From Alphaproteobacteria bacterium (GTDB lineage: Bacteria; Pseudomonadota; Alphaproteobacteria; Sphingomonadales; JAKSBY01), in NCBI GenBank assembly GCA_021774625.1, contig JAJFIV010000008.1:111392-175391 (forward strand): DNA of 64,000 nucleotides, in the 5' to 3' direction. The notes beneath the pieces were generated by a model that saw only the letters and a program-made list of their open reading frames with translations, did not search any database and was not told the DNA's origin. Positions 45,273 to 63,378 of this stretch are shown piece by piece. Each line of letters starts with the position of its first letter. The first letter of the stretch is position 1. Both the position numbers and the translations under genes were made by a program.

Positions 45273-48200
45273 TTATTTTTGCATGATGTAAATGGGTTTG
45301 GCGGGTTCAGGGTCTGGATAGATACGCGCGGCATCATTACCGCTGTAAAGCGCACCGTTTTTCATAACATATTCAATGGTGCGGGCATTTCTGACATCAT
45401 CCAGCGGATTTTCGGTCATGATCACGAGATCGGCAAGTTTGCCTGGCTCAATGGAACCGAGATCATTGCCCAATCCATGATAGACCGCCCCGTTGATGGT
45501 CGCAATTTCCAGGACTTCCGCCGGGGTGAAGCCGCCCTGGGCAAACAGCTCCATTTCCCAGTGGGCATCAAGGCCGGGCATCTGGCCGTGTGCGCCCATT
45601 TGCAGCGAGACACCGGCCTGATAGAGTTTTCTGAGCGAGGCCGCCATTTCCGGCGCATAATGTTCATCGGCCCAGATATGTTGTGGACGGCGGAAAGTCA
45701 GAAGTTCCTCCTTGCGCATAAAATTGCGCAGTTTTTCATTTTCCCACACCCGTTCCGAACGGTGGAAATACCCCTCCCCCGCCGGTCCGTTATAGACCAC
45801 AATCAGGGTGGGTGTGATGCCGATATCGCTTGCGGCGAACATGGCCGCCACATCGCCGTAAAGCGGCGTCATGCCCATTGAATGTTCAATCCCGGTCTCG
45901 CCATCGACAATCTGGGTCAGGTTCATCTGCAACAGCGCGGCGGATTCCGCGACCACATTGAGGCCCAATTCACGTCCCGCTGTCGCAATCCCGTGGCGGG
46001 CCCGGCGGTTGAACACGGCATAATCCTTGACCGCTGTCGCGCCAAAGGCTTTGTTATAGGCAAGATGCTCATAGGCATCCTCGTAATTTTTAATGGAGCG
46101 GTAAAGGCCTAGCCGGAATTTGGGGCTGCCGTAAATGGGCGTGCCGGTGGAAAACAGGCGCGGGCCGGTGATATCGCCCTTGCGCAACATATCAACCAGC
46201 CAGAAATCCTTTTCCTGGGTGCCATAGACCTCATACATGGTGGTCACGCCGTGGGCGAGCGGCGACAAAAGACCGGAAACCCTCTGTTCGATCACATGCA
46301 GGTAGGACGGCACGCCGCCATAATGGGCATGGGCATCGACGATGCCGGGCATAATGGTGCGGCCCTCAAGATCATAGACTTGCGCCCCGCCGGGGATATC
46401 CAGACCCGGACCAACGGCTTCAATGCGATTGCCGTTAATCAGGATGGAAGCGTTTTCCAGCACCTCCCGCCCGGCATTCATGGTGAGAATCCGCGCGTTG
46501 GTCAGCGCAATAATACCGTCCGGGACAGCAACCGTGTATTCAATGGCAAGGTCGGTTGTTTCCGCTTCTTCGGCATCGTTCAGGATGGCCGTCAGATTTT
46601 TTTCATAGAAGGTCGCGCCGCGCATCCAGCTTAGGCTTTGACTGTCTGCGCTCCAGGTCAGATACGCGCCATCTTCCTTGTGGATACGTTTAGTGAAACC
46701 CTGACCATCCTCGGCACTGATGCTGACCGGTTTACCGGCAAATTCAAACGGCGTAATATAGGATCTGTGATATTCCCGGAACGCCAGCCATTGCAGGCCG
46801 GGCGACACGATGGCGCGGGTTGCATTGGGCAGGCGGTAAAAATCGCGCTTGACGCGGCCGTCCAGGGAAACACTGCGGACAATCAGGCCGTCTTCGTCAT
46901 ATTCCGAATAATAGAGGGTCGCGCCGTCCGGTGAAAAAGTCAGGCCCGGCGTGCGGCGGATTTCCGGGGTGTTGCCGTTGGACCAGTTGGCATTGATATC
47001 GGCCAGCTTACGGTGACTGCCGTCCGCGCCCCGGATCATCAGTTCGAAATCCACCTGATTCTCCAGCCGCATGCCATTGCCGAAATCGCCCCGGCCGCGA
47101 ATATAGGCAAGTATTTTACCGTCAGACGACAGCGCCAGGCCGCCATATTGGGTGGCAAAATCCGTGAGTTTTTCCGTGCGGCTGCGGTTCAGTTTCTTGC
47201 GGTAAATGGCGCCGAAATCCTCATCGTTCCAACTGGCATAGTAAAGCCAGTTGCCCTCCGCATCATAAACCGGGCTTGATTCATGATCCGGAGAGTCAGT
47301 CAGATTGCGGTTGCCGCCATTGGATAGAAGATAGAGATCACCCAGCGTTTCCGAAATCACGCCAGCCTCTGTCCGGATGCCCCAGCGATTAACCTGTGTG
47401 CGCTGTGCGCCTTGCGGAATGTCAGCTTTAAAACGGATGGTCTCATTCAGTTCCCGGCTGACGGTGGCGCGGAAAGGAATTTCCGCTGCCTCCCCCGTTG
47501 CCACATCCACCCGGTGGATTTTTCCGCCCTTGCTCAGCACAATCGAACCGCCGCCGGGCATCCAGGACATGGCCGGAGCGGTTCCAAGATGCTTGACCGG
47601 ATTTTCCATTTGATCGCGGTCAAGTCCGCGTAGCAATATGCGATCCCTGCTGGCCGCCATATCCCGGACAAACAGAACTGTTTCCAGATCATCCCGCCCC
47701 ATAAAGGCAAGCCGGCTGCCGTCGGGCGACAGGGCCGGATTGAAAGCACCGCCGGGGCGGTCGATCATCACGGCCGCTTCGCCGGTTTCCCGGTCATACT
47801 GATAAATACGCGGGCCGCTTCCCGGCAGTTGCCCGTCATTGCGTTCATAATAAATCGCGTTCCGCTCCGGGTCCTCGACATAATTCTGCAGAAACTGGAA
47901 AAGTCCGGCCTTGGCCAGTTGCTGGCTTTTTCCATAGCGATTGAAAAGATGGGCTTCAGTGCCGTTTTCCCCGGTGATGCGGGCGGCCATGATATGGCGG
48001 CCATCGGCAGTCCACTCACCGCGCACCACCGGGGACGGGGATTGGGTAAAATTTGTCAGTTCACCGGTGTCCCGGTTCAGCACCCAGATATCCTCGCTGC
48101 CGCCGCGGTCCGATGTGAAGGCGATTTCACGGCCGTCCGGGCTGTAGCGCGGGATCAGATTCCATGACCGGCCAGATGTCAGGGCGGTTGCTTCACCGCC

Positions 48201-48434
48201 GTCCGCCGGCATTTCATAGATATGACCAAGCAGATCGAAAGCGATGAATTCCCCGTCCGGCGAGACATCCAGGCTGATCCAGGTGCCCTCCTCCGCCACA
48301 TGGTCAAACTGGACAACCGGCGTGCCCTCGGGATTCGCCGTATCAACGGACCAGTCGTCCTTTTTCTCTTCCTGGGCGGTAATGCCGACCGGCAGAAATG
48401 TCAGCGTTAATAAAATAGCTGGAAATATCCGCAT
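45273..48434 (-). CDS. Secreted TolB-like beta-propeller fused to an amidohydrolase domain (1053 aa)
   Basis: Signal peptide. PD40-like repeats (SPDGxxIAF, SPDGSRLAF, SxDGKxLAY). C-terminal metal-dependent hydrolase signature GIVDAHAHYG... Confidence 0.85.
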   Translation of the reverse strand: MRIFPAILLTLTFLPVGITAQEEKKDDWSVDTANPEGTPVVQFDHVAEEGTWISLDVSPDGEFIAFDLLGHIYEMPADGGEATALTSGRSWNLIPRYSPDGREIAFTSDRGGSEDIWVLNRDTGELTNFTQSPSPVVRGEWTADGRHIMAARITGENGTEAHLFNRYGKSQQLAKAGLFQFLQNYVEDPERNAIYYERNDGQLPGSGPRIYQYDRETGEAAVMIDRPGGAFNPALSPDGSRLAFMGRDDLETVLFVRDMAASRDRILLRGLDRDQMENPVKHLGTAPAMSWMPGGGSIVLSKGGKIHRVDVATGEAAEIPFRATVSRELNETIRFKADIPQGAQRTQVNRWGIRTEAGVISETLGDLYLLSNGGNRNLTDSPDHESSPVYDAEGNWLYYASWNDEDFGAIYRKKLNRSRTEKLTDFATQYGGLALSSDGKILAYIRGRGDFGNGMRLENQVDFELMIRGADGSHRKLADINANWSNGNTPEIRRTPGLTFSPDGATLYYSEYDEDGLIVRSVSLDGRVKRDFYRLPNATRAIVSPGLQWLAFREYHRSYITPFEFAGKPVSISAEDGQGFTKRIHKEDGAYLTWSADSQSLSWMRGATFYEKNLTAILNDAEEAETTDLAIEYTVAVPDGIIALTNARILTMNAGREVLENASILINGNRIEAVGPGLDIPGGAQVYDLEGRTIMPGIVDAHAHYGGVPSYLHVIEQRVSGLLSPLAHGVTTMYEVYGTQEKDFWLVDMLRKGDITGPRLFSTGTPIYGSPKFRLGLYRSIKNYEDAYEHLAYNKAFGATAVKDYAVFNRRARHGIATAGRELGLNVVAESAALLQMNLTQIVDGETGIEHSMGMTPLYGDVAAMFAASDIGITPTLIVVYNGPAGEGYFHRSERVWENEKLRNFMRKEELLTFRRPQHIWADEHYAPEMAASLRKLYQAGVSLQMGAHGQMPGLDAHWEMELFAQGGFTPAEVLEIATINGAVYHGLGNDLGSIEPGKLADLVIMTENPLDDVRNARTIEYVMKNGALYSGNDAARIYPDPEPAKPIYIMQK

Positions 48435-52324: not shown

Positions 52325-52398
52325 GGCGCGGTGGCGGAGTGGCTACGCAGAGGACTGCAAATCCTTGCACACCGGTTCGATTCCGGTCCGCGCCTCCA
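52325..52398 (+). tRNA. tRNA-Cys (GCA)
   Basis: Cloverleaf by hand: acceptor GGCGCGG/CCGCGCC, 3-bp D stem GCG/CGC, anticodon stem GAGGA/TCCTT with loop CTGCAAA, T arm ACCGG-TTCGATT-CCGGT, discriminator T, encoded CCA. Confidence 0.9.
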
Positions 52399-54073
52399 AC
52401 TTTTCGCGGCCGATCCCGCGATAGATTTCCATAATGTCGGCAAATACGGATTCGGCGGTGGGCCAGCGGCCTACGCCTTCGCCATTGACGATGGTTTTTT
52501 TTCCGGATTCTGTGGTGACAACCAGCCTGTTGCGGGCATTTTTTACGCCGGCAAGGTCGCTGCCAGCATCAATCCGCATCAGGCTGACGGAGCCATGAAG
52601 AATGCCATCCTCCTGCCAGCAGGCGGCGACGTGGCGCAGCGTTCCGCTTAATCCTCCGGTATTTTCGATGCCGCCAATCCGCAGATTTTCCGGCGGAATA
52701 TCCCGGCCAAAGGCATGGCGGGCAAGGATTGAGAGTTTTGCGGCGGCGTCGAGCCCGTTAATATCGCGGCCTGGATCAGCCTCGGCATAGCCCTTTTCCT
52801 GAGCGGATGCGAGCGCCGTGCCGAAATCAGCACCCTGATCCAACTGATGCAAAATAAAGTTGCCGGTGCCGTTCAGAATGCCGTCAAGACGCTGGATTCC
52901 TTCATTTTCACAGGCCGTATCGACCGCTTCTATCGCACAAGCCCCGCCACCAACTGATGCTGAATAACAAAGGGTTACACCGTTTCCCTCAGATAAATAT
53001 TTAAGAATATTCCAATGACCAGCGATCATATCCTTGTTCGCGGTCACTACATGAATTCCCTGTTCCAGGGCGCGGCCGGCAATATCCAGCGCGGGATTTA
53101 TGCCGCCGATGGTTTCCACCAGCATATCGATACCAGCTGACAGGGCCTGTTCCGGATCGGTTGAAAAAAGCGCCGGCGCGATGCCAAGACCGGTGTAATT
53201 TCCGGGTTGCCGGACAATAATTTTGACGATCTCAAAACGTTCCGGTTCTTTGGCAAGATGCTGATAAACGCCATAGCCAACGGTTCCAAGGCCCAGCAGG
53301 GCAACCCGAACAGCTCGTTTGGGGCTGCCGGCGGCCATTACGGACGGCTGATCGCCGATGATGGTTTCATCAGCCGACCCCGCACAAGAAACGATAACAG
53401 GAAATTCATGGCGCCGGGCGTAGTCTATGGCCTTCGGCTGCACCAGCTGACCAGCAACCCGGGTGGCGTCGGCCCAGCTGGCGCGGGCGTATTTCCGGGG
53501 GCGCGGCCCGGATATCGCCGGATCCCATTCATAAAGCCCGTCCACATCCTTGAGCAGGCGGCATTCCTTCGCGCCAAATCTGCTGGCCAGAAAAATAGCG
53601 CTCAGGTCTGACCCGCCCCGGCCTAGAAGCGACATTTTACCGTCCTCGCCAATGCCGAAAAAACCCGGAAAGACCACGACATCACATGCGGCCAGATGCT
53701 GTTTCAGGGCGGCTTCATCAATACCGGCCGGCTCGCCGTCCCGATGCGGCCCCCTGATGGTGAAATTCACGTCACACGGGTCGAGCAGGCTGACCGGCAG
53801 TCCCGCCTGTTCAATATATATGGCGAGAAGCGCCGCTGCTTTCCGCTCGGCGCTGGCCAGAAAGGACGCCACCAAATGCCCGCCGGCATCCGGGGAAATT
53901 GCCCCGGCCTGTTCCAGCAGCGTGTCGGTTTCGTCTGCCATGGCGGAAACCACCGCAATAACCCGGCAGCCCTGCCGGGCATAACGATAAATTTCATGCA
54001 CGGCGGACCGCATGTCTTCCGGCTCTTTCAGAACCGAACTGCCAAATTTCAGGACGATCAGGTCAGGGTGCAT
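52343..54073 (-). CDS. Bifunctional aspartokinase (minimal, no ACT domains) / homoserine dehydrogenase fusion, MetL/ThrA-like
   Basis: Aspartokinase motifs VLKFGSSVL, LLGRGGSDLSA, LKDVDGLYEWDP. Homoserine dehydrogenase motifs LLGLGTVGYGV (NAD fold), VVTANKD, GYAEADPGRDINGLDAAAKLSILA. The last 18 codons and the stop (TAG, 52345-43) are antisense to tRNA-Cys. Confidence 0.85.
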   Translation of the reverse strand: MHPDLIVLKFGSSVLKEPEDMRSAVHEIYRYARQGCRVIAVVSAMADETDTLLEQAGAISPDAGGHLVASFLASAERKAAALLAIYIEQAGLPVSLLDPCDVNFTIRGPHRDGEPAGIDEAALKQHLAACDVVVFPGFFGIGEDGKMSLLGRGGSDLSAIFLASRFGAKECRLLKDVDGLYEWDPAISGPRPRKYARASWADATRVAGQLVQPKAIDYARRHEFPVIVSCAGSADETIIGDQPSVMAAGSPKRAVRVALLGLGTVGYGVYQHLAKEPERFEIVKIIVRQPGNYTGLGIAPALFSTDPEQALSAGIDMLVETIGGINPALDIAGRALEQGIHVVTANKDMIAGHWNILKYLSEGNGVTLCYSASVGGGACAIEAVDTACENEGIQRLDGILNGTGNFILHQLDQGADFGTALASAQEKGYAEADPGRDINGLDAAAKLSILARHAFGRDIPPENLRIGGIENTGGLSGTLRHVAACWQEDGILHGSVSLMRIDAGSDLAGVKNARNRLVVTTESGKKTIVNGEGVGRWPTAESVFADIMEIYRGIGREKLEARTGIEPVCKDLQSSA

Positions 54074-54293
54074 ACCAGCCTCTTGAATTTAGCTGACTTG
54101 ACCCGTTTTGCGCAAAAAAATACCTGTTCCACAAGATGCGAAGCAGGCTTTGCTCCGCTTTAGCAGTATTTATTTCGCGCCCGCAAGCTGAAGGTCAAAT
54201 CGGCGCACTTTCAATTTAACTATCCACTAACCCCGTCTTCTGTCAATAAAAAATGCTTGACGGATGTTTCCTGTCAGCGTTACATGCCGCCAT

Positions 54294-54410
54294 TACTCAT
54301 CGAGACCGGCTGAGGGATAGGCCCAGTGACGCCGGGGCAACCATTAAAGCTAACCCCTTTGATAAGGTGCCAACTCCTACGGGGACAGATGTCCACCGGC
54401 AGATGAGAGA
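54294..54410 (+). promoter_or_regulatory. SAM-I (S-box) riboswitch aptamer in the metX-metB leader
   Basis: P1 CTCATC (54296-301) / GATGAG (54403-408). GAGA-CCGGCT-GAGGGA-TAGGCCCAGTGACGCCGGGGCAACC matches the S-box core. P3 ATTAAAG/CTTTGAT. AAGGTGCCAACTCC matches the conserved junction. P4 GGGGAC-AGAT-GTCC. A possible promoter TTGACG-N17-TTACAT lies at 54257-54285. Confidence 0.8.
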
Positions 54411-54519
54411 AGCCGATAGAAGCCGGATTATATCCGGTGGTGGATCGGCCCCTCCTTCGCGGTTTTCCGTATGAGCTCCTGATGAGCTTAGCCCGATAAA
54501 GGCAACGGAGAACCAGCAA

Positions 54520-55548
54520 ATGCTCGCCAAAAAAAACAGCCCCGTATGCGCCTTCGATTTTATCGAACAGCCGCGCTATATTTTACCGGAAATCGTCGAT
54601 ATCGACTCGGTGATCGCGCTGCCGCCGGATTTTCGTCTTGCCGCGGGAGACCGCGCGCCCGCTGAATTGCGCTGCCGGCTGGTTGGCCCTGAAGGTGCGC
54701 CGGTCATTGTGGTCCTTGGCGGGATTTCCGCGGACCGTCATACGATTGACGCTTTGGATGGCGCGCCTGGCTGGTGGCGGAAGTTTGCCGGCGCCGGACG
54801 CGCCATTGACATCCGAAAATACCGCATCCTTTCTTTTGATTACATCACGCCGGACGCACCGGTCGCAGAGCGCATTCCGGCCGTTTCGACCCTTGACCAG
54901 GCGCGGGTCCTCGCCTTCCTGCTTGATCATCTGGGCCTTGCCAGGGTCCGTTGTTTTATCGGCTCCTCCTATGGCGGAATGATCGGTCTGGCCTTTGCTG
55001 CGGCCTATCCCGGACGGCTTGATCATCTGATCGCCATTTCCGCGGGGGATTATCCGCACCCCATGGCAACGGCCTGGCGGACGGTTCAGCGGCAGATTGT
55101 CCGGCTCGGCCTGAAATCCGGCCAGGCCAGGGCGGGATTGGCCCTCGCCCGTCAGCTCGCCATGACCACGTATCGCTCGCATGAGGAATTCGCCGCCCGC
55201 TTTTCAAGCATCCCCGCCTGCGACGGCGCATTCCCTGTTGAAGGCTATCTGAAAGCGCAGGGGAATAAATTCACTGACCGGATGTCGCCGGAGCGCTTTC
55301 TGGCGCTTTCGTTATCCATCGACCTGCATCACGTTGACGCCACCGCCATTACGGCGCCGGTGACATTGATCGCAAGCACGTCCGATCAAATCGTCCCGCC
55401 GGGCCAAATGCAACGACTGGCAAAAAAAATTCCAGGGCCCTGCAGTTTGGCGGCAATCCCATCCGTTTTCGGCCATGACGCCTTTCTGAAGGAAACCGGC
55501 GGCATCAGCCCGATTATCATCAAGACCCTTGAGGAGTTACCGGTATGA
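54520..55548 (+). CDS. metX: Homoserine O-acyltransferase (MetX family, short form)
   Basis: Alpha/beta hydrolase with VLGGISADRH, GWW, nucleophile GSSYGGM, acid STSDQIVP, His GHDAFL. Sits downstream of a SAM riboswitch and upstream of metB. Confidence 0.8.
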   Translation: MLAKKNSPVCAFDFIEQPRYILPEIVDIDSVIALPPDFRLAAGDRAPAELRCRLVGPEGAPVIVVLGGISADRHTIDALDGAPGWWRKFAGAGRAIDIRKYRILSFDYITPDAPVAERIPAVSTLDQARVLAFLLDHLGLARVRCFIGSSYGGMIGLAFAAAYPGRLDHLIAISAGDYPHPMATAWRTVQRQIVRLGLKSGQARAGLALARQLAMTTYRSHEEFAARFSSIPACDGAFPVEGYLKAQGNKFTDRMSPERFLALSLSIDLHHVDATAITAPVTLIASTSDQIVPPGQMQRLAKKIPGPCSLAAIPSVFGHDAFLKETGGISPIIIKTLEELPV

Positions 55549-56738
55549 CCAACGACACCAGGAATATTGAAACCCGGACTGTCCGCGCCGCTGTCGGCGG
55601 CGATACGGCGCACGGCGCAGTTATGCCGCCGCTTTATCTCTCCACCAATTTCACCTTTGCCGGCTTCGATCAGAAGCGTGACTATGACTATACCCGGTCC
55701 GGCAATCCGACCCGGGATGCCTTTGGCGACGCGCTGGCGAAGCTGGAAGGAGGCGCGGGCTGTGTCGTGACCTCTTCCGGCATGGCCGCCATTCATCTGA
55801 TCTGTCAGTTGCTGCGCCCCGGTGATCTTCTGATCGCCCCCCATGACTGTTATGGCGGCACCTGCCGTCTGTTGAATGCCGCCCGGCGCAAAAGGCATTT
55901 CGATGTCGCCTATATCGATCAGAATGACCCGGCGGCGCTTGATGCGGCGCTGGCGGGAAAACCGAAACTGATTCTCGTGGAAACGCCGTCCAATCCGCTG
56001 TTGCGTATTGTCGATGTCAGGGCCATTTGTGAAAAGGCGAAAACCGCGGGTTCGCTGGTGGCGGCCGACAACACCTTCCTGTCCCCCGCGCTGCAAAAGC
56101 CGCTGAAACTGGGGGCCGACATTGTTCTTCATTCCACCACAAAATATATTAACGGCCATTCCGATATTGTCGGCGGCGCGGTCATTGCCAAGGACCCGGC
56201 GCTGCAGGATGAACTGGGCTGGTGGGGAAATTGTCTGGGCCTGACCGGCGCGCCGTTTGACAGCTTCCTGGCCTTGCGCGGGCTGCGCACTCTTTTTGTC
56301 CGCATCCGTCAGCAGGAAGCCACCACTCAAAAGGTCGCCGCCGCGCTGGTGCGGCATCCGCGGGTGGAAAAGGTCTATTATCCCGGCCTGCCGGACCATC
56401 CCGGCCATGCCGTTGCCGTCTCGCAGCAATCCGGGTTCGGGGCCATGCTGAGTTTTGAACTGGATGACGGCGGCGGCAATATCCCGGCTTTCCTCAAGGC
56501 GCTTGCATGTTTCTCGCTTGCTGAATCCCTGGGCGGGGTGGAAAGCCTGATCGCCCATCCGGCCACCATGACCCACGCAGCCATGGAACCCGGTGAGCGG
56601 ATCAGGGCCGGGATTGGCGATAATCTGCTGCGGCTCTCAATCGGGCTTGAGGATGCGGAGGATCTGATTGACGATCTGACCCACGCCCTGGATTTAGTGA
56701 CGGACCGGCGGGGCAGGAAAAACCTGGCAGTGGTTTAA
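55545..56738 (+). CDS. metB: Cystathionine gamma-synthase / O-succinylhomoserine (thiol)-lyase, PLP-dependent
   Basis: Close by-eye colinearity with E. coli MetB (YTRSGNPTRD, APHDCYGGT, ETPSNPLLR, HSTTKYINGHSD with the PLP Lys, LAESLGGVESLIAHPATMTHA). 4-nt overlap with metX. A MetZ assignment cannot be excluded. Confidence 0.88.
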   Translation: MTNDTRNIETRTVRAAVGGDTAHGAVMPPLYLSTNFTFAGFDQKRDYDYTRSGNPTRDAFGDALAKLEGGAGCVVTSSGMAAIHLICQLLRPGDLLIAPHDCYGGTCRLLNAARRKRHFDVAYIDQNDPAALDAALAGKPKLILVETPSNPLLRIVDVRAICEKAKTAGSLVAADNTFLSPALQKPLKLGADIVLHSTTKYINGHSDIVGGAVIAKDPALQDELGWWGNCLGLTGAPFDSFLALRGLRTLFVRIRQQEATTQKVAAALVRHPRVEKVYYPGLPDHPGHAVAVSQQSGFGAMLSFELDDGGGNIPAFLKALACFSLAESLGGVESLIAHPATMTHAAMEPGERIRAGIGDNLLRLSIGLEDAEDLIDDLTHALDLVTDRRGRKNLAVV

Positions 56739-56811: not shown

Positions 56812-58431
56812 ATGCCAAATATTCTACGCAGGCTGTCTTTGCTGGCAGCAATCAGCGCCGCGCTTCTGGCCGCGCCATCGGGTTTCGCGCAGGATTCCCC
56901 TGCAGCTGCGGTCGATCCGGCGCCGAACCGCGCTGAAGGCGACGGTCCTTTTGACCGGCTGGTGATCCGCGGCGGATATCTGATTGACGGCACCGGCGCG
57001 CCGCTTCAGGGCCCGGTCGATATTGTCGTTGAAAATAATAGAATCACCGAAGTGCGCGTTGTCGGCTCGCCGAAAGTGCCCATTGATCCGGAAGGCAGAC
57101 CCGAGCCCGGTCAGCGGGAAATTGATGCGCAAGGCATGTATATCCTGCCCGGTTTTATCAACGCCCATGCCCATGTCAGCAATCCCGGTCAGGCCCGGTT
57201 CGGCAAAGCGGCCCCCGCCGAATATGCCTATAAACTCTGGATGGGCCATGGCGTCACCACCGCCCGTGTGGTCGGCACCGGGGTCAGCCGCGAATGGGCA
57301 CTGCGTGAAAAAACCCGCAGCATCTCCAGCGCCATTACGGCCCCGCGTCTGTCCTATCACATGAGTTTCCCTGGCGGCATGACGCCGGATGAGGCCCGCA
57401 TCTGGGTGCGGGATCTCGCCCGCGACGGCGCCGACGGCATCAAGTTTTTCGGCGGCCCGCCGGATGTCATGGAAGCGGCCATTGACGAAGCCAACAAACG
57501 CGGCCTGAAGACCGCCATGCATCACGCCCAGCTGGCGGTCACCCGCTGGAATGTGCTGGATTCGGCCCGCGCCGGTCTGACCTCCATGGAACACTGGTAC
57601 GGCCTGCCTGAGGCGTTGTTTGAAGACAGGCGCATCCAGCATTATCCGGCCGATTACGTTTATCACGACGAACAGCACCGCTTTGGCGAGGCCGGACGGC
57701 TGTGGCGGCAAGCGGCAAAACCCTATTCCGAAAAATGGAATGCGGTGATGGAGGAATTGCTCAGCCTGGATTTCACGCTCGATCCGACCTTCACCATTTA
57801 TGAAGCGGCCCGCGATGTGATGGCCGCCCGGACCCAGGAATGGCTGGCCGATTACACCTGGCCGACCCTGGAACGTTTCTTCCGCCCCAGCCGGGTCGCG
57901 CACGGCTCGTTCTGGTTTGATTGGACCACCCAGGATGAGATTGACTGGAAGGAAAATTACCGGCTGTGGATGACCTTCATCAATGAATATAAAAACCGCG
58001 GCGGCCGGGTCACCGTCGGCGATGATGCCGGCTTTATCTATAAGCTTTATGGCTTTGGTTATATCCGCGAATTCGAGCTGTTGCAGGAAGCCGGCTTTCA
58101 CCCGCTGGAGGTGATCACCGCCGCGACCCTGCATGGCGCGGAACTGCTTGGCCGGGACGCCGACATCGGCACCGTCGAGAAAGGCAAGCTTGCCGATCTC
58201 ATTATAGTGCCGGAAAACCCCTTGCAGAATTTCAAAACCCTGTATGGCACCGGCGCCGTGCGCCTCAATGATGAAACCGATCAGGTGGAACGCGTCGGCG
58301 GCGTGCGCTGGACCATCAAGGACGGCATTGTTTATGACGCCCGCGGGCTGCTGCAGGACATCCGGCAGATGGTCGCGGATGAGCATGTGCGGGAAGCGGA
58401 AATGACGCAATCATCGACGGAGAGCGAATAA
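56812..58431 (+). CDS. Secreted amidohydrolase family protein
   Basis: Signal peptide; PGFINAHAHV metal-binding motif and a C-terminal amidohydrolase pattern (GKLADLIIV). Confidence 0.85.
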   Translation: MPNILRRLSLLAAISAALLAAPSGFAQDSPAAAVDPAPNRAEGDGPFDRLVIRGGYLIDGTGAPLQGPVDIVVENNRITEVRVVGSPKVPIDPEGRPEPGQREIDAQGMYILPGFINAHAHVSNPGQARFGKAAPAEYAYKLWMGHGVTTARVVGTGVSREWALREKTRSISSAITAPRLSYHMSFPGGMTPDEARIWVRDLARDGADGIKFFGGPPDVMEAAIDEANKRGLKTAMHHAQLAVTRWNVLDSARAGLTSMEHWYGLPEALFEDRRIQHYPADYVYHDEQHRFGEAGRLWRQAAKPYSEKWNAVMEELLSLDFTLDPTFTIYEAARDVMAARTQEWLADYTWPTLERFFRPSRVAHGSFWFDWTTQDEIDWKENYRLWMTFINEYKNRGGRVTVGDDAGFIYKLYGFGYIREFELLQEAGFHPLEVITAATLHGAELLGRDADIGTVEKGKLADLIIVPENPLQNFKTLYGTGAVRLNDETDQVERVGGVRWTIKDGIVYDARGLLQDIRQMVADEHVREAEMTQSSTESE

Positions 58432-58937: not shown

Positions 58938-61028
58938 TTATTCAGCTCCTGCCCCGGAAGCGACTTCTGTTTCAGCGCCACCCTTATCCTCATGCGCCGG
59001 GTCATACATTTTGAACCACTTCATCAGATAGAGCTGACGGCGGAGATAGTTGGAGGGGATGGAGCCGGTGCCGTGATACTCGCCCTTCACTTCGAGATAT
59101 TTGGTCGGCACGCCGAGATATTTCAGGATCGCATACATCTGCTTGCCCTGCTGATCCGGGGTCCGGCGGTCGAGATCGCCGGCCATGAACAAGGTCGGCG
59201 TGGTCACATTTTCCGAATGCATGATCGCCGAATGCTCGTACCATTGGGTCGGATCTTCCCAGAACGGCTTTTCAAAGAAATTGATCATCCAGCCCGACAC
59301 ATCCGTCGTGCCCACCATGCCGATCCAGTCGGTGACCGGGCAACGGGAAACTGCCGCCTTAAAGCGGTCTGTATGAGTAATTACCCATGCGGTCAGAATG
59401 CCGCCGCCGGAACAGCCAGTGACAAACATCCGGTTTTCATCCACATAACCCTGATCGATCATATAATCCACGCCGCCCATCAGATCCGCGAAATCACGGG
59501 GACCGGGATAGATATTCTCGATGGCGGCGGCGAAATCCTCGCCGTAACCGGTCGAGCCGCGGGGATTGGTGAACAGCACCACATAGCCTTCGGCGGCAAA
59601 ATGGTGGAACATGAAATTATAGGCCGAGCGATACATGCCATGTGGACCGCCATGGATCATTAGAACCAGAGGATATTTTTTCGACGAATCGAAGTCCGGC
59701 GGCAGCACGGCCCAGCCCTGAGCCCGGGTGCCTTCGGTCGAATCATACCAGAATTCTATGGTTTCCGATTGATCCACGCCCGCCAGCACATCGCCGTTCA
59801 CATTGGTCAGCCGGGTGAAATTACCGCCATCCGCGAGGTCGAAACGAACGACATCCGGCATTATATCGGCAGTGGTCTGGGTCCCCACCGCAATGCGGCC
59901 GCGGTCGGAAACATTGGAAAGGAAAATATTCTGATCCCCTGTCGTTACGTCGCGCACATTGCCGTTCATGCCGGTATAGTGAATGTTGCGGTCGCCTTCC
60001 TTGTCGAGCGCAAAGTAAATACCGCGCGAATTGGCGGCCCAGGTCAGCGACGCCGGGTCCGACGCAAGATCGCCCGCAACGCGGCGCTGACCGGTTCCGT
60101 CCGCATTCACCACGTAAAGATTCGAATGCCGATAACTCATGACCGATTCGTGGTAGGCCGTGAACGCAATCATCTCGCCATTGGGTGAGAAGACCGGGCT
60201 GCGCGCGCCGATGCTGTTATCGGTCAGTTGAGTGACTTCACCCGAACCCACATCGACTGCATAAATATAGCTTTCGGTAAAACGGCGGCCGTCATCTTCC
60301 TCGGCCAGACCGTCAAAGGTAATCTTGCTGCCGTCAGGCGACCAGGAAAGGTCGGCAGGTCCGCGAATGGCGCCCAACCCGCGGCCGTTGGCATGCCAGT
60401 TGCCATGGGTGATCTGGCGCGGCGTGCCCCCGTCAGCCGTGACCACAAAAATATGATCATAGCCGTTATTCATCGGGCCGATGCGATCCTGGTGCCAGAG
60501 AAAGGTTTCAATCACCAGCGGGTCCTCTTTCCATTTGGCGCCGGCAGGCTTGCCGGGAAGCTTCACTGTAAAGTCTGACTTGTGTGGCACCCGTGACATA
60601 AAGGCGATTTCCTGCCCATTCGGCGACCAGAAAATACCGCGCGGTTCTTCCGTTCCATAAGTGACCTGGCTGATCGCCCCTTCATTATCCATCCAGCGGA
60701 TAAAAATCTGCGGCTTGCCGGCATCATCCGGGGCGATAAAGGCAAGGCGTGAACCATCCGGCGACCACCGGGCGTTGCCGCCCTTGTCCAGCAGTTGCCG
60801 GTTTCTCGTCCCGTCTGCATTCATGATCCAGAGGGCCGCTGAGCGCCCATCCTTCATTTTATCGATATGCGAGCGGGTATAGATAATTTTCGACCCATCC
60901 GGCGAAATCTGCGGATCGCCCACAGATTCAATATCCAGATAGGTTTCAAGTTTCAGATTATCCGCAAAAGCCGTGCCTATCGGCAGAATTAGCAAAGCGG
61001 CCAGCGCTGTCAGAATGCGTCGCGACAT
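58938..61028 (-). CDS. Secreted S9 family serine peptidase (beta-propeller plus prolyl-oligopeptidase catalytic domain)
   Basis: RBS AGGAGGGA. Signal peptide MSRRILTALAALLILPIGTAFA. PD40-like repeats; catalytic GCSGGG (GxSxG); GGPHG. Confidence 0.9.
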   Translation of the reverse strand: MSRRILTALAALLILPIGTAFADNLKLETYLDIESVGDPQISPDGSKIIYTRSHIDKMKDGRSAALWIMNADGTRNRQLLDKGGNARWSPDGSRLAFIAPDDAGKPQIFIRWMDNEGAISQVTYGTEEPRGIFWSPNGQEIAFMSRVPHKSDFTVKLPGKPAGAKWKEDPLVIETFLWHQDRIGPMNNGYDHIFVVTADGGTPRQITHGNWHANGRGLGAIRGPADLSWSPDGSKITFDGLAEEDDGRRFTESYIYAVDVGSGEVTQLTDNSIGARSPVFSPNGEMIAFTAYHESVMSYRHSNLYVVNADGTGQRRVAGDLASDPASLTWAANSRGIYFALDKEGDRNIHYTGMNGNVRDVTTGDQNIFLSNVSDRGRIAVGTQTTADIMPDVVRFDLADGGNFTRLTNVNGDVLAGVDQSETIEFWYDSTEGTRAQGWAVLPPDFDSSKKYPLVLMIHGGPHGMYRSAYNFMFHHFAAEGYVVLFTNPRGSTGYGEDFAAAIENIYPGPRDFADLMGGVDYMIDQGYVDENRMFVTGCSGGGILTAWVITHTDRFKAAVSRCPVTDWIGMVGTTDVSGWMINFFEKPFWEDPTQWYEHSAIMHSENVTTPTLFMAGDLDRRTPDQQGKQMYAILKYLGVPTKYLEVKGEYHGTGSIPSNYLRRQLYLMKWFKMYDPAHEDKGGAETEVASGAGAE

Positions 61029-61093
61029 GGTTTCCCTCCTGTTGAGACTCGTGATCAAAGGAGAATAGCGGAGATTAAGCCTGAACGGAAGCA

Positions 61094-63298
61094 TTAAGGG
61101 GACGTCCTGAATGAGTAAAGTGTAGCAGACCTGACAGCATCTAAGGTTTCGAGGGGGGGCTTTTTGAGATATTTTGACTGTTCCAGCGCCTTTTTAGCTG
61201 CTTCACCAAAAACCAGTGGCGGGTAGGATTCTATCAATTGAACATCCATTGGGTCTCCATCATCGTCCACAACGAACTCATACACCGCCCATCCCTGAAT
61301 CCCCGCTCGGAGCGCATCTTTCGGATAAAGTGGTATTCTCATTTTGTCTGCATATGCCTTCCATTTCAGATCGTTGCCGGCGGTTGGCCCGGCGGATGCA
61401 TAAGCAAAATACTCAGATGCTTTAGCTTTTTCATCGTTTTCAAGAGCGATGTCTCCCAATCCCATATACGCGAAACGTCTTATGGGGCTTGTCTCATCCA
61501 AATACGCCACAGGCAAATCTGTAATACGCTGCAGAATTGGCTTTGCCGCCCCAAGCCCGTCTGCCCTGATTTTGCTTTCCGCCAAAATCGCAAGAGCCCG
61601 GGCCATAGTGCTGGATTCCACCGAATTGCTTTGATCGACCATGGTCAAAATATCGTTAAGATGGTCTTCGGCTGTATCTCTATTCCATTGATATCGCCCC
61701 GAAAAATATATACCGACATTCAACTTGGCTTGCATAATCTCCATGCGTGGCCGTTGATACTCTTCCAAAATTTCTATCAAGCGTTCAAACTGATTAAATG
61801 CTTTTCGATCATGGCCGACCAAGGCAGCACAATATGCATAATCCCAGTGGGCGCCAACTACCATATCTTCCGGGACTGCCGCGGATTTTTCCGCTACCTT
61901 GATTGCGCGCCTCAAGTACCTCTGGGCCGTATTGGAATCCGTAGCCAGGATAGCGAGGCGGCCTATATTCCTATAATATGCAACGAGTTCCGGTGCATCA
62001 ACACCAAGAGCGTTTCGTGCAACATCCGTTGCCTTGAGGTATTGGTCAATAAGCGCCGTTATATCGCCAGGCTTGTCAAAATCTGCTTCGAGTGCGAGTG
62101 CTTCAATTGAAGCCAGTTCCTTCTGCAACGCAGGATCAGCTCTGGATTCAAGAGGCAACAGTTCTTCTACATCGCCAAAATCAGTTACCCTCCATGTATT
62201 TTCACGGAGTTCACGAAGTTGTGGTGACATACATCCCAACTGCAACCGAACACCAGCCCGTTTTGCAAATTCCATCTTTGTGAATTCGGTCGGAAACCGC
62301 CAGTCTTTCATGACCTCGTATATGGATCTTTCATCAACACCAGTTGGTGATGAATAAATGATAGCGGGGTCAGCTGCAGAGCCATCTTCTGTGATACTGA
62401 ATTCAACGACTGTGGATGTGTAGATTGGGAGCCCCGCCTGATCCACTGAACATGTTGGTAATTTTACCTTAAAGTCGGTGAATTTCTTAGGTTGGATAAT
62501 GCCAACACCGGCCTTGGTATAATTGGTGACCATGTCATCTTCTCGACCCATTAAACCATACAAAAGGCCGGTATCCTGCAGGTAACTGCGCATGAGCCAT
62601 GTTATGGCTGCTTTTTTGAAACTAATGTTTTTTCTGGCGTCGATGTAAAGTTGCTCGGCATCATCAAGATTGCCATGCACCAACTCAAGCCGTGCCCTTA
62701 GAATTTTTGTGAGGGCACGGCGGGTATCATCACGGGCAAAATGTTTGTCGGCCAGCCGTTTGGCTTCATCCAGGCTGCGACGAGCCCCTTCATAATCGGG
62801 TAGCATAGCAATGCTTGCATAGTTGAAATGAGCCTGGAACAGTTTTTCCGGCGCCGCAGCCGGATTCTTTTCATATATTCTTAGTGCAAGCGCGGACATA
62901 TCCTTCGCACTCTGAAAATCAAACAGCGCCTTTTGAACCGAAGCTACATTGGTGGCCATTGCGGCCAGATCGGGGCTATCTTTAGGAAGTCTTTTTTCCA
63001 GAATGCGCCATGCAGCCTGAAAGAGAGGCTCCGCCTCGTCATATTCTGCGAGGCCGAAATAAATATTCCCCAAGGAATTGGCCAGATAACCATAATCCTC
63101 GCCATGTTCCCCATAAAGGCTGACATACGATTCAAGCGCCTGTTCCGCTAATGGCTGCGCTTCAGCAAATTTACCTTCACTCAATAGCGCATTGGATTTA
63201 TAAAAACCGTCAAGCCATTCATCGTCAGGGGATGGAACATCTTCAGCAAAAACAGGTTTGATCAATAACAAGGAAATAATAAAGATTAAGAAACGCAT
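61094..63298 (-). CDS. Secreted TPR-like repeat protein with two TonB-C-terminal-like domains
   Basis: Start at MRFLIFIISLLLIKPVFA (63298). Helical-repeat regions. Internal TVVEFSITEDGSAADPAIIYSSP...VMKDWRF and C-terminal YPKDALRAGIQGWAVYEFVVDDDGDPMDVQLIESYPPLVFGEAAKKAL resemble TonB_C. GC is about 42-50% in three hand-counted 60-nt samples, against about 57% in a uvrB sample. Confidence 0.75.
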   Translation of the reverse strand: MRFLIFIISLLLIKPVFAEDVPSPDDEWLDGFYKSNALLSEGKFAEAQPLAEQALESYVSLYGEHGEDYGYLANSLGNIYFGLAEYDEAEPLFQAAWRILEKRLPKDSPDLAAMATNVASVQKALFDFQSAKDMSALALRIYEKNPAAAPEKLFQAHFNYASIAMLPDYEGARRSLDEAKRLADKHFARDDTRRALTKILRARLELVHGNLDDAEQLYIDARKNISFKKAAITWLMRSYLQDTGLLYGLMGREDDMVTNYTKAGVGIIQPKKFTDFKVKLPTCSVDQAGLPIYTSTVVEFSITEDGSAADPAIIYSSPTGVDERSIYEVMKDWRFPTEFTKMEFAKRAGVRLQLGCMSPQLRELRENTWRVTDFGDVEELLPLESRADPALQKELASIEALALEADFDKPGDITALIDQYLKATDVARNALGVDAPELVAYYRNIGRLAILATDSNTAQRYLRRAIKVAEKSAAVPEDMVVGAHWDYAYCAALVGHDRKAFNQFERLIEILEEYQRPRMEIMQAKLNVGIYFSGRYQWNRDTAEDHLNDILTMVDQSNSVESSTMARALAILAESKIRADGLGAAKPILQRITDLPVAYLDETSPIRRFAYMGLGDIALENDEKAKASEYFAYASAGPTAGNDLKWKAYADKMRIPLYPKDALRAGIQGWAVYEFVVDDDGDPMDVQLIESYPPLVFGEAAKKALEQSKYLKKPPLETLDAVRSATLYSFRTSP

Positions 63299-63378
63299 AA
63301 CCACCCTCCCACGCTTGCTTGGCCGATATTTACCAAACTCAGGGTGGCATGACAATAGAATGCCTTATTAAATCGCCA

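Follow-up and report, generated by a model that had tools for sequence, protein, structure and literature searches.

Positions 54074-54519 of the window (the whole 64,000-nt stretch of contig JAJFIV010000008.1 that was analysed) form a 446-nt intergenic region between a metX-metB operon on the plus strand and a gene for a fused aspartokinase-homoserine dehydrogenase on the minus strand. The leader of metX-metB carries an S-adenosylmethionine (SAM) riboswitch of the SAM-I class and, with a probability of roughly 0.7, it is an OFF switch that acts on translation through a conserved helix over the Shine-Dalgarno (SD) sequence. The aptamer, its gene context, the absence of a terminator and a conserved, covarying SD helix are what the sequences show; SAM binding, the OFF logic, the translational output and the link between aptamer stem P1 and the helix are what the reading predicts from them. 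Taken alone, the SAM-I element is ordinary, a further case of a familiar riboswitch in a familiar gene context. The interesting part of the region is that it stands back to back with a second SAM riboswitch class, a very probable SAM-II element on the opposite strand.

In a whole-window cmscan search, RF00162 (SAM-I) matched the plus strand at 54294-54409 with 82.3 bits against a gathering score of 44.4, over positions 1-108 of the 108 in the full model and with E = 7e-18. This score is far above chance, and the element is therefore confirmed as genuine; it is also the only riboswitch at gathering threshold when the whole window is compared with Rfam 15, the remaining matches being two tRNA genes. 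A first-pass annotation, made from the letters alone, had called SAM-I by eye, and a check of the sequence finds every S-box motif that it named, together with the P3 and P4 stems, where it had placed them. The core motifs are GAGGGA (54312-54317), GGCCC (54320-54324), GGGGCAACC (54334-54342) and AAGGTGCCAACTCC (54365-54378), and in the cmscan alignment the consensus letters considered for the P2 kink-turn and the SAM-contacting nucleotides, GAGGGA, UGA-GCC, GCAACC, GGUGCCAA and UCC, are present with a posterior of about 1, the pseudoknot between the P2 loop and J3-4 being unscored by the model. With P1 enforced in folding, the four-way junction of P1 to P4 is recovered (Table 1). Across 74 distinct homologous aptamers, 97.1% of cells are paired, ten pairs show changes on both sides, and the covariation score is reached by none of 500 shuffles. 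Similarly, P4 has an A-U to G-C change between the window and L082, a 1,998-nt metagenome contig that is the only close relative (69% identity in MetX and 89% in the leader); the metagenome scan for close relatives returned nothing else above 49% MetX identity. Judging from these features, the aptamer would be expected to bind SAM.

Two further details of this aptamer family may be recorded. In 74/74 distinct aptamers, the inner three P1 pairs (AUC/GAU) do not vary. The P3 loop (54350-54356), a part that is normally variable in SAM-I, holds a conserved Y-AACC motif, which reads CUAACCC in the window. The regular expression C[UC]AAC matches this loop in 23 of 77 metX-linked aptamers, and UUAAC and UCAAC variants occur in a few more; loci with the motif are L003, L004, L007, L012-L014, L017-L019, L030, L053, L063-L065, L072 and others. 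It sits atop covarying stems in alpha- and gammaproteobacterial sequences and in a Thermoanaerobaculia metagenome-assembled genome (MAG).

The riboswitch precedes metX and metB, as had been proposed. MetX scores 337.1 bits against NF006449 (cut-off 296), a model of the homoserine O-succinyltransferase type, with the acetyltransferase models far under their cut-offs, and MetB scores 588.2 bits against TIGR02080 (cut-off 504.55). The end of the aptamer is separated from the metX start by 110 nt on the same strand, the metB start overlaps the metX stop (ATGA), and metB adjoins or follows metX in 113/121 loci. The interval 54257-54519, to which the SAM-I element was first assigned, begins at the first base of a -35 box and ends one base 5' of the metX ATG, and thus comprises the promoter and the whole leader. 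The putative promoter at 54257-54285, from which transcription would start near 54292, was not listed by an E. coli-type consensus scan; both of its boxes are identical in L082, and the spacer between them has diverged.

Downstream of the aptamer, a terminator scan of 53900-54800 returned 0 sites, in agreement with the earlier remark that no canonical terminator is present. The long hairpin that had been noted there is real: P5 is found in every predicted fold and has compensatory changes in L082, from A-U to G-C in the outer stem and from G-C to A-U in the inner stem. It is followed by the C-rich linker CCCCUCCUUCGC, which differs in L082 only by a gap of one base next to P5, at its 5' end. 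The GGAG that had been singled out as the SD sequence does sit 9 nt before the metX ATG, and is predicted to be held in helix P7, a 9-bp duplex of GGUUUUCCG with CGGAGAACC at -18.5 kcal/mol. An alternative platform was proposed initially, in which the tract CCCCUCC (54449-54455) would act as the anti-SD strand and, with SAM bound, cover GGAG. Its CUCC could pair with GGAG, L082 keeps the tract, and it is predicted to be free only with P1 closed (mean probability of being unpaired 0.85 with the aptamer enforced vs 0.31 when the 5' strand of P1 is blocked), as would suit an OFF switch. However, the tract and GGAG can form just 4 contiguous pairs, because both flanks mismatch, and GGAG is already engaged in the 9-bp helix. 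Additionally, GGUUUUCCG is, by position and sequence, the homologue of the covarying anti-SD strand of other leaders (GGUYCUCCG). The CCCCUCC tract is thus very unlikely to be the sequestering strand, and the predicted partner of GGAG is GGUUUUCCG.

The SD helix recurs in homologous leaders with different sequences. A plausible start could be assigned in 64 leaders, and in 57 of them the minimum-free-energy (MFE) fold joins the SD core to a strand upstream of it. The helix strands before the start are, for instance, GGUUCUCCG/CGGAGAACC, GGUCCCUCC/GGAGGACC and GCUCCGCA/UGCGGAGC, and, in further leaders, GGUACUCC/GGAGUAC and GGUCUCUGC/GCAGAGGCC. When covariation was computed over 56 leaders in a gap-free two-strand alignment, 77.4% of cells were paired vs 63.1% after shuffling, and the covariation score was 0.391 vs 0.179 +/- 0.018 in the shuffles (reached by 0/500) and 0.09-0.19 in slid registers. 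The pairs that flank the CUCC/GGAG core across leaders are U-A, G-C, C-G and A-U.

Several points weigh against a switch that works through this helix. The register of the alignment was set by the MFE partner of each individual sequence, a choice that biases towards pairing, and the variety of flanking Watson-Crick pairs is therefore its informative part; the start codons in other loci were picked by a heuristic. A test of the duplex against dinucleotide shuffles is weak in these G+C-rich leaders (median z of -1.07), and for the duplex of the window it gives z = -2.29, with 4/100 shuffles equally good; this test discriminates poorly, and therefore pair counting was used instead. Furthermore, the SD sequence folds as paired with or without P1, and no ON state is predicted. 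The probability that GGAG is unpaired is 0.001 in both predicted states of the window (aptamer enforced and P1 open), the median for the SD sequence across the family is 0.02-0.05 with both proxies, and opening above 0.3 with the P1 3' strand free is seen in 3/64 leaders only. Similarly, the search for an anti-sequestor that could take up the anti-SD strand found a best upstream partner of only -10 to -11 kcal/mol.

If the favoured reading is correct, abundant SAM would bind the four-way-junction aptamer and lock P1, and metX-metB, and with it the synthesis of O-succinylhomoserine and cystathionine, would be turned down. The output would most likely be control of translation initiation rather than intrinsic termination, with the SD strand CGGAGAACC buried in its 9-bp helix with GGUUUUCCG. 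When P1 is open, its 3' strand (54399-54409) is predicted to pair with CUCCUUCGC (54452-54460) in the C-rich linker and so to extend hairpin P5; when P1 is closed, the linker would be freed, and the sequestering helix may gain two pairs. This P1-dependent exchange of the linker is the sole SAM-dependent rearrangement that folding could predict.

Some smaller features of the platform were also observed. GAUGAG, the P1 3' strand, recurs at 54481-54486 within P6 and, as UAUGAG, at 54470-54475, and the P1 5' strand could pair with either copy; a GAUGAG-like motif is found in the inner-hairpin loop of many homologous leaders. A mini-ORF (open reading frame) of ATG AGC TCC TGA at 54471-54482 is without an SD sequence and was set aside as coincidence.

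The leader can be compared with SAM-I(Xcc), which precedes the Xanthomonas campestris met operon (XC1251 metA and XC1252 metB, together with XC1253 hom; Tang et al. 2020, PMC7270179). SAM-I(Xcc) has no terminator, and repression by SAM amounts to about 98% in a translational and about 24% in a transcriptional fusion (PMC7270179). In-line probing and RNase H assays show its SD sequence paired in both states and its AUG masked only with SAM (PMC7270179). Both systems have a SAM-I aptamer before a homoserine O-succinyltransferase gene followed by metB, lack a Rho-independent terminator, and have a platform of several hairpins (P5-P7) in which the SD sequence is hairpin-held in both states (as predicted, in the window); relatives in Rhodanobacter, Luteibacter and Dyella have the same leader type as the window. 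In contrast, hom in the window lies outside the operon, is fused to aspartokinase and is divergently transcribed behind its own probable SAM-II element. Additionally, masking of the start codon by SAM is not predicted for the window, where AUG is unpaired with a probability of 0.57 (free proxy) and 0.87 (bound proxy). With the SAM-I(Xcc) type, the platform appears to share only the anti-SD/SD helix and the GAUGAG-like loop.

A second input has been proposed for SAM-I(Xcc), namely that uncharged tRNAfMet binds the anti-SD strand (Tang et al., PMC7270179). If the same were true of the window, the SD helix would be constitutive, SAM would add a second layer of repression, and uncharged initiator tRNA on the anti-SD strand would open the ribosome site; this would extend the best explanation rather than replace it. 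Such a scheme accounts for an SD sequence that, in the window as in most of the family, is predicted to stay paired in either state, and fits the in-line and RNase H data on SAM-I(Xcc), in which tRNAfMet on the anti-SD strand, with a critical CC, frees the SD sequence (PMC7270179). The anti-SD strand of the window has a CC (54467-54468), and its operon is orthologous to the Xanthomonas one. However, a CC is present in any anti-SD strand, platform similarity outside the helix is low, and the tRNA claim comes from one study in one genus. Moreover, the window has no predicted SAM-dependent masking of AUG, unlike the Rhodanobacter loci L008 and L040, in which the probability that AUG is unpaired falls from 0.94 and 0.87 (free) to 0.01 and 0.04 (bound), respectively. 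A dual input is thus a rather unlikely, if not far-fetched, description of the window. A constitutive SD helix, as predicted across the metX-linked SAM-I family, would nevertheless extend the Xanthomonas tRNAfMet question to many phyla: a ribosome site that is predicted across 64 leaders to stay masked with or without SAM is the puzzle behind the initiator-tRNA model, which now becomes testable in distant lineages. As a side observation, in L008, L039 and L040 (Rhodanobacter and Dyella) the sequence GGCAACUC(A/C/G)UUGCAGG lies just 5' of the anti-SD strand and resembles the aptamer segment GUGCCAACUCCUGCGG; in the folding proxies for these three loci, the start codon is masked only when the P1 3' strand is unavailable, as in Xanthomonas.

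The main output could also be transcriptional or lie in RNA stability, with SAM triggering Rho-dependent termination or RNase cleavage, in the leader or early in metX, and masking of the SD sequence being secondary. When translation is blocked in riboswitch leaders of proteobacteria, Rho sites commonly become exposed, and the leader of the window has no intrinsic terminator and does have an unstructured C-rich tract (54449-54460). Rho-dependent termination was likewise not excluded by the Xanthomonas authors, whose transcriptional fusion showed the 24% effect (PMC7270179). On the other hand, the translational effect dominates in Xanthomonas (98% vs 24%), and it is the SD helix that is conserved and covaries across the family, which makes this alternative unlikely. 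Rho-dependent termination, like a second input, may yet act in addition to the SD helix. The predicted translational control through the SD helix also distinguishes the leader from Firmicute S-box leaders such as B. subtilis yitJ and T. tengcongensis metF, which have the same architecture, core and OFF logic on methionine genes: these mostly use a terminator and antiterminator, whereas the window is without one and is predicted to mask its ribosome site instead. The P1 of the window, set against those of Firmicute S-box leaders, is CUCAUC/GAUGAG.

The first-pass annotation had described SAM-I as unusual in an alphaproteobacterial-type genome and suggested that it might have been laterally acquired with its operon. 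The host assignment holds, because the best named UvrB relatives (about 76% identity) are all Alphaproteobacteria: Iodidimonas, Gimibacter, Kordiimonas, Parvibaculum, Zavarzinia and a Sphingomonadales MAG; the host's lineage lacks any named close relative. Besides UvrB, the genes for ValRS, ArgRS, SerRS and SecD lie in the window. The distribution of the cassette was examined among MetX relatives from one genome per GTDB species, of which the best 80 loci, all in species-representative genomes, were retained. These are mostly from Gammaproteobacteria (Steroidobacteraceae, Rhodanobacter, Luteibacter, Dyella and many MAGs), and also include MAGs labelled Thermoanaerobaculia, Gemmatimonadota, Planctomycetota and Melainabacteria; seven are alphaproteobacterial (three Brevundimonas, Asticcacaulis, Hyphococcus, a Parvularculaceae MAG and Vitreimonas). 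RF00162 was found just 5' of metX at the Rfam threshold in 15/17 loci tested, and a family covariance model built from those hits finds the aptamer upstream of metX in 75/80 of the best loci and in L082. Within the alphaproteobacterial loci, it is present in 6/7 (Caulobacterales and Parvularculales). Members of the same MetX clade without an upstream SAM-I aptamer are L006 (Vitreimonas), L044, L047, L050 and L066.

The cassette is old and widespread, no oddity of this genome, and Caulobacterales and Parvularculales with this MetX clade have SAM-I as a rule. That alphaproteobacteria typically use other SAM classes is a fair generalisation, to which this cassette is a known exception; SAM-I, whose commonness in the lineage had been named as the outcome that would count against the proposal, proves to be largely common at the level of the class and for this operon. 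SAM-I has been recorded in alpha-proteobacteria since 2007 (PMC2258182), and the proteobacterial methionine regulon survey of Leyn et al. did not search for it (PMC4239095). These results correct the impression that alpha-proteobacteria avoid SAM-I for metX.

A recent acquisition of the riboswitch and operon from outside Alphaproteobacteria was considered. In favour of such a transfer, members of the MetX clade turn up in several phyla, at 43-52% identity, the MetX of the window is no closer to alphaproteobacterial sequences (43-47%) than to others, and tRNA-Cys and tRNA-Asn genes flank the met block; transfer has also been suggested for sporadic riboswitch occurrences in general (Barrick and Breaker, PMC2258182). 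Against it, G+C is 0.569 vs 0.55-0.59 in neighbouring sequence, the leader is 89% identical in L082 though MetX is only 69% identical, and the divergent layout with the fused aspartokinase-homoserine dehydrogenase gene is common to Brevundimonas, Asticcacaulis and 12 metagenome loci. In an unbootstrapped neighbour-joining (NJ) tree, MetB belongs to a clade of 42 members, among them all seven alphaproteobacterial sequences. The MetX tree, also unbootstrapped, disagrees and groups the window with marine metagenome loci, and the NJ trees are weak evidence only because they have no bootstrap support and give conflicting neighbours for the window. A genomic island was considered and rejected, as the flanking tRNA-Cys and tRNA-Asn genes are without matching direct repeats and no integrase was found. 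Recent acquisition from outside the class is accordingly improbable, and lateral acquisition with the operon may have happened at some time, with no sign of a recent event. The cassette has probably passed between phyla in ancient times, given how scattered it is.

On the minus strand, the fused gene is matched by aspartate kinase models over residues 5-245 and by the homoserine dehydrogenase model PRK06349 over residues 253-555 (241.4 bits, cut-off 205), with the Pfam domains AA_kinase, NAD_binding_3 and Homoserine_dh; no relative of the fused protein above 46% identity was found. Its predicted promoter agrees with the consensus at 10/12 positions and has both boxes conserved in L082. The two promoters of the region are back to back, with 10 nt between their -35 boxes. 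When the intergenic region was searched permissively against Rfam, RF00521 (SAM-II) matched this strand at 54216-54139, in the 5' UTR of the fusion gene, with 27.3 bits over the full model and E = 1.3e-4 in a 201-nt search against all families; the gathering score of 36 is not reached. The SAM-II long-loop model gave a weaker match in the same place. Because 27.3 bits is under the Rfam cut-off, independent support was sought in homologues. In two homologue contigs where the fusion gene has its own upstream region, L126 and L122, RF00521 lies directly 5' of the gene with 38.5 and 35.3 bits, respectively. The three SAM-II sequences match one another block by block: each of the conserved blocks (GAUUUGA, GCUUGC and GCUAAAG) occurs in the window and is identical in the three, and the outer pair of P1 varies between U-G, C-G and A-U. 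A possible P2 pairs the descending UUCAGCUU with the ascending AAGCGGAG, giving a P2b of 4 bp (GCUU/AAGC) and a P2a of 2-4 pairs (CUUC/GGAG); its strands were assigned from the SAM-II/SAM-V architecture (PMC6061858). The -10 box ends 11 nt before P1, and a promoter just upstream of P1 is what Corbino et al. describe for SAM-II (PMC1273637). Additionally, hom is a recorded SAM-II target in Hyphomonadaceae. On the sequence evidence, the minus-strand SAM-II element is very probably real.

The expression platform of this element appears to be of the standard design for SAM-induced termination. Its predicted antiterminator excludes the terminator hairpin, CCUGCUUCGC being common to both. A hairpin and U run stand before the gene in the same place in L126 and L122, which were folded directly because the simple terminator scan missed bulged hairpins. 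In comparison to the known SAM-II elements of alpha-proteobacteria (metA motif, RF00521; Corbino et al. 2005, PMC1273637; Gilbert et al. 2008), the element resembles them in a promoter a few nucleotides before P1, in a single stem with an H-type pseudoknot, and in a terminator between aptamer and ORF, which is usual there. It differs from them in its score (27.3 < 36 bits), its short P2a, its fusion-gene target, and an intergenic region shared with SAM-I.

Overall, the intergenic region may hold two SAM riboswitch classes, each behind one of two divergent promoters, that split one pathway between them. In this tentative arrangement, which falls somewhat short of even odds, SAM-II and its terminator would govern the aspartokinase-homoserine dehydrogenase, and a translational SAM-I would govern metX-metB. 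The three genes together span the route from aspartate to cystathionine, such that two folds with different outputs would act on consecutive steps. With a SAM-II element on the other strand of the region, one cell would read one metabolite via two unrelated RNA folds. The pair was found in none of 24 related loci searched (17 at gathering threshold, 9 at E <= 1); at E <= 1, SAM-II is absent from the Brevundimonas and Asticcacaulis loci with the same divergent layout, and the SAM-II-bearing contigs L128-L130 have no metX gene. Barrick and Breaker (2007) reported that no species carried both classes (PMC2258182), and a literature search on co-occurrence of SAM-I and SAM-II returned nothing relevant. 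If real and undescribed, the pairing would offer a side-by-side test of why cells keep several aptamer classes, whether for affinity, kinetics or output.

Table 1. Features of the intergenic region and its flanking genes, in window coordinates
Feature	Coordinates	Strand	Detail	Basis
Putative metX-metB promoter	54257..54285	+	-35 TTGACG 54257-54262; 17-nt spacer; -10 TTACAT 54280-54285	sequence
SAM-I aptamer	54294..54409	+	full length	RF00162
SAM-I P1	54296-54301/54402-54407	+	CTCATC/GATGAG	sequence, P1-enforced fold
SAM-I P2	54306-54310/54331-54335 and 54314-54316/54322-54324	+		P1-enforced fold
SAM-I P3	54336-54349/54357-54371	+	loop CUAACCC	P1-enforced fold
SAM-I P4	54380-54386/54391-54398	+		P1-enforced fold
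P5 hairpin	54412..54449	+	outer GCCGAU/AUCGGC; inner GCCGGAU/AUCCGGU	every predicted fold
C-rich linker	54449..54460	+	CCCCUCCUUCGC; first C (54449) is the last P5 base	sequence, folds
Anti-SD strand (5' strand of predicted helix P7)	54461..54469	+	GGUUUUCCG; 9 bp with 54506-54514	predicted fold
Hairpins enclosed by P7	54472..54503	+	P6 54472-54478/54484-54490; GCC/GGC 54491-54493/54501-54503	predicted folds
SD strand	54506-54514	+	CGGAGAACC; GGAG 54507-54510; start codon 54520-54522	ORF start, fold
metX	54520..55548	+	homoserine O-succinyltransferase type	NCBIfam NF006449
metB	55545..56738	+	cystathionine gamma-synthase (O-succinylhomoserine (thiol)-lyase)	TIGR02080
Putative divergent promoter	54219..54246	-	-35 TTGACA 54246-54241; 16-nt spacer; -10 GATAGT 54224-54219	10/12 consensus positions
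Probable SAM-II aptamer	54153..54207	-		RF00521, block alignment
SAM-II P1	54207-54202/54181-54176	-	UGCGCC/GGCGCG	fully paired
SAM-II third strand	54201-54193	-	GAUUUGACC	
SAM-II P2, descending strand	54192-54183	-	UUCAGCUUGC	
SAM-II L3	54175-54165	-	A-rich	
SAM-II P2, ascending strand	54164-54153	-	GCUAAAGCGGAG	
Predicted SAM-II expression platform	54114..54158	-		duplex and hairpin energies
Predicted antiterminator	54158-54151/54145-54138	-	GCGGAGCA/UGCUUCGC	-11.0 kcal/mol
Predicted terminator hairpin and U run	54147-54123, then 54122-54114	-	U run UAUUUUUUU (U7)	-9.2 kcal/mol alone, -12.2 with flanks
Fused aspartokinase-homoserine dehydrogenase gene	52343..54073	-	576 aa; SD AAGAGG 54084-54079; ATG 54073	profile matches

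The surroundings of the intergenic region have some features of their own. The 3' end of the fusion ORF (stop 52343) overlaps a convergent tRNA-Cys gene (52325-52398, plus strand) by about 56 nt in the region 52343-52420, and the tail of the fusion appears to come from reading through into the tRNA's antisense strand, because homologues align only to about residue 552 of 576. Large hydrolase-like ORFs lie around the met block (those listed are 45273-48434, 56812-58431, 58938-61094 and 61094-63355). A 539-aa amidohydrolase-family protein lies 73 nt past metB, and a 1053-aa protein has weak matches to a TolB beta-propeller and to amidohydrolases. Past the amidohydrolase-family gene are two long minus-strand ORFs, and G+C falls to 0.50 in the final 4 kb of the window.

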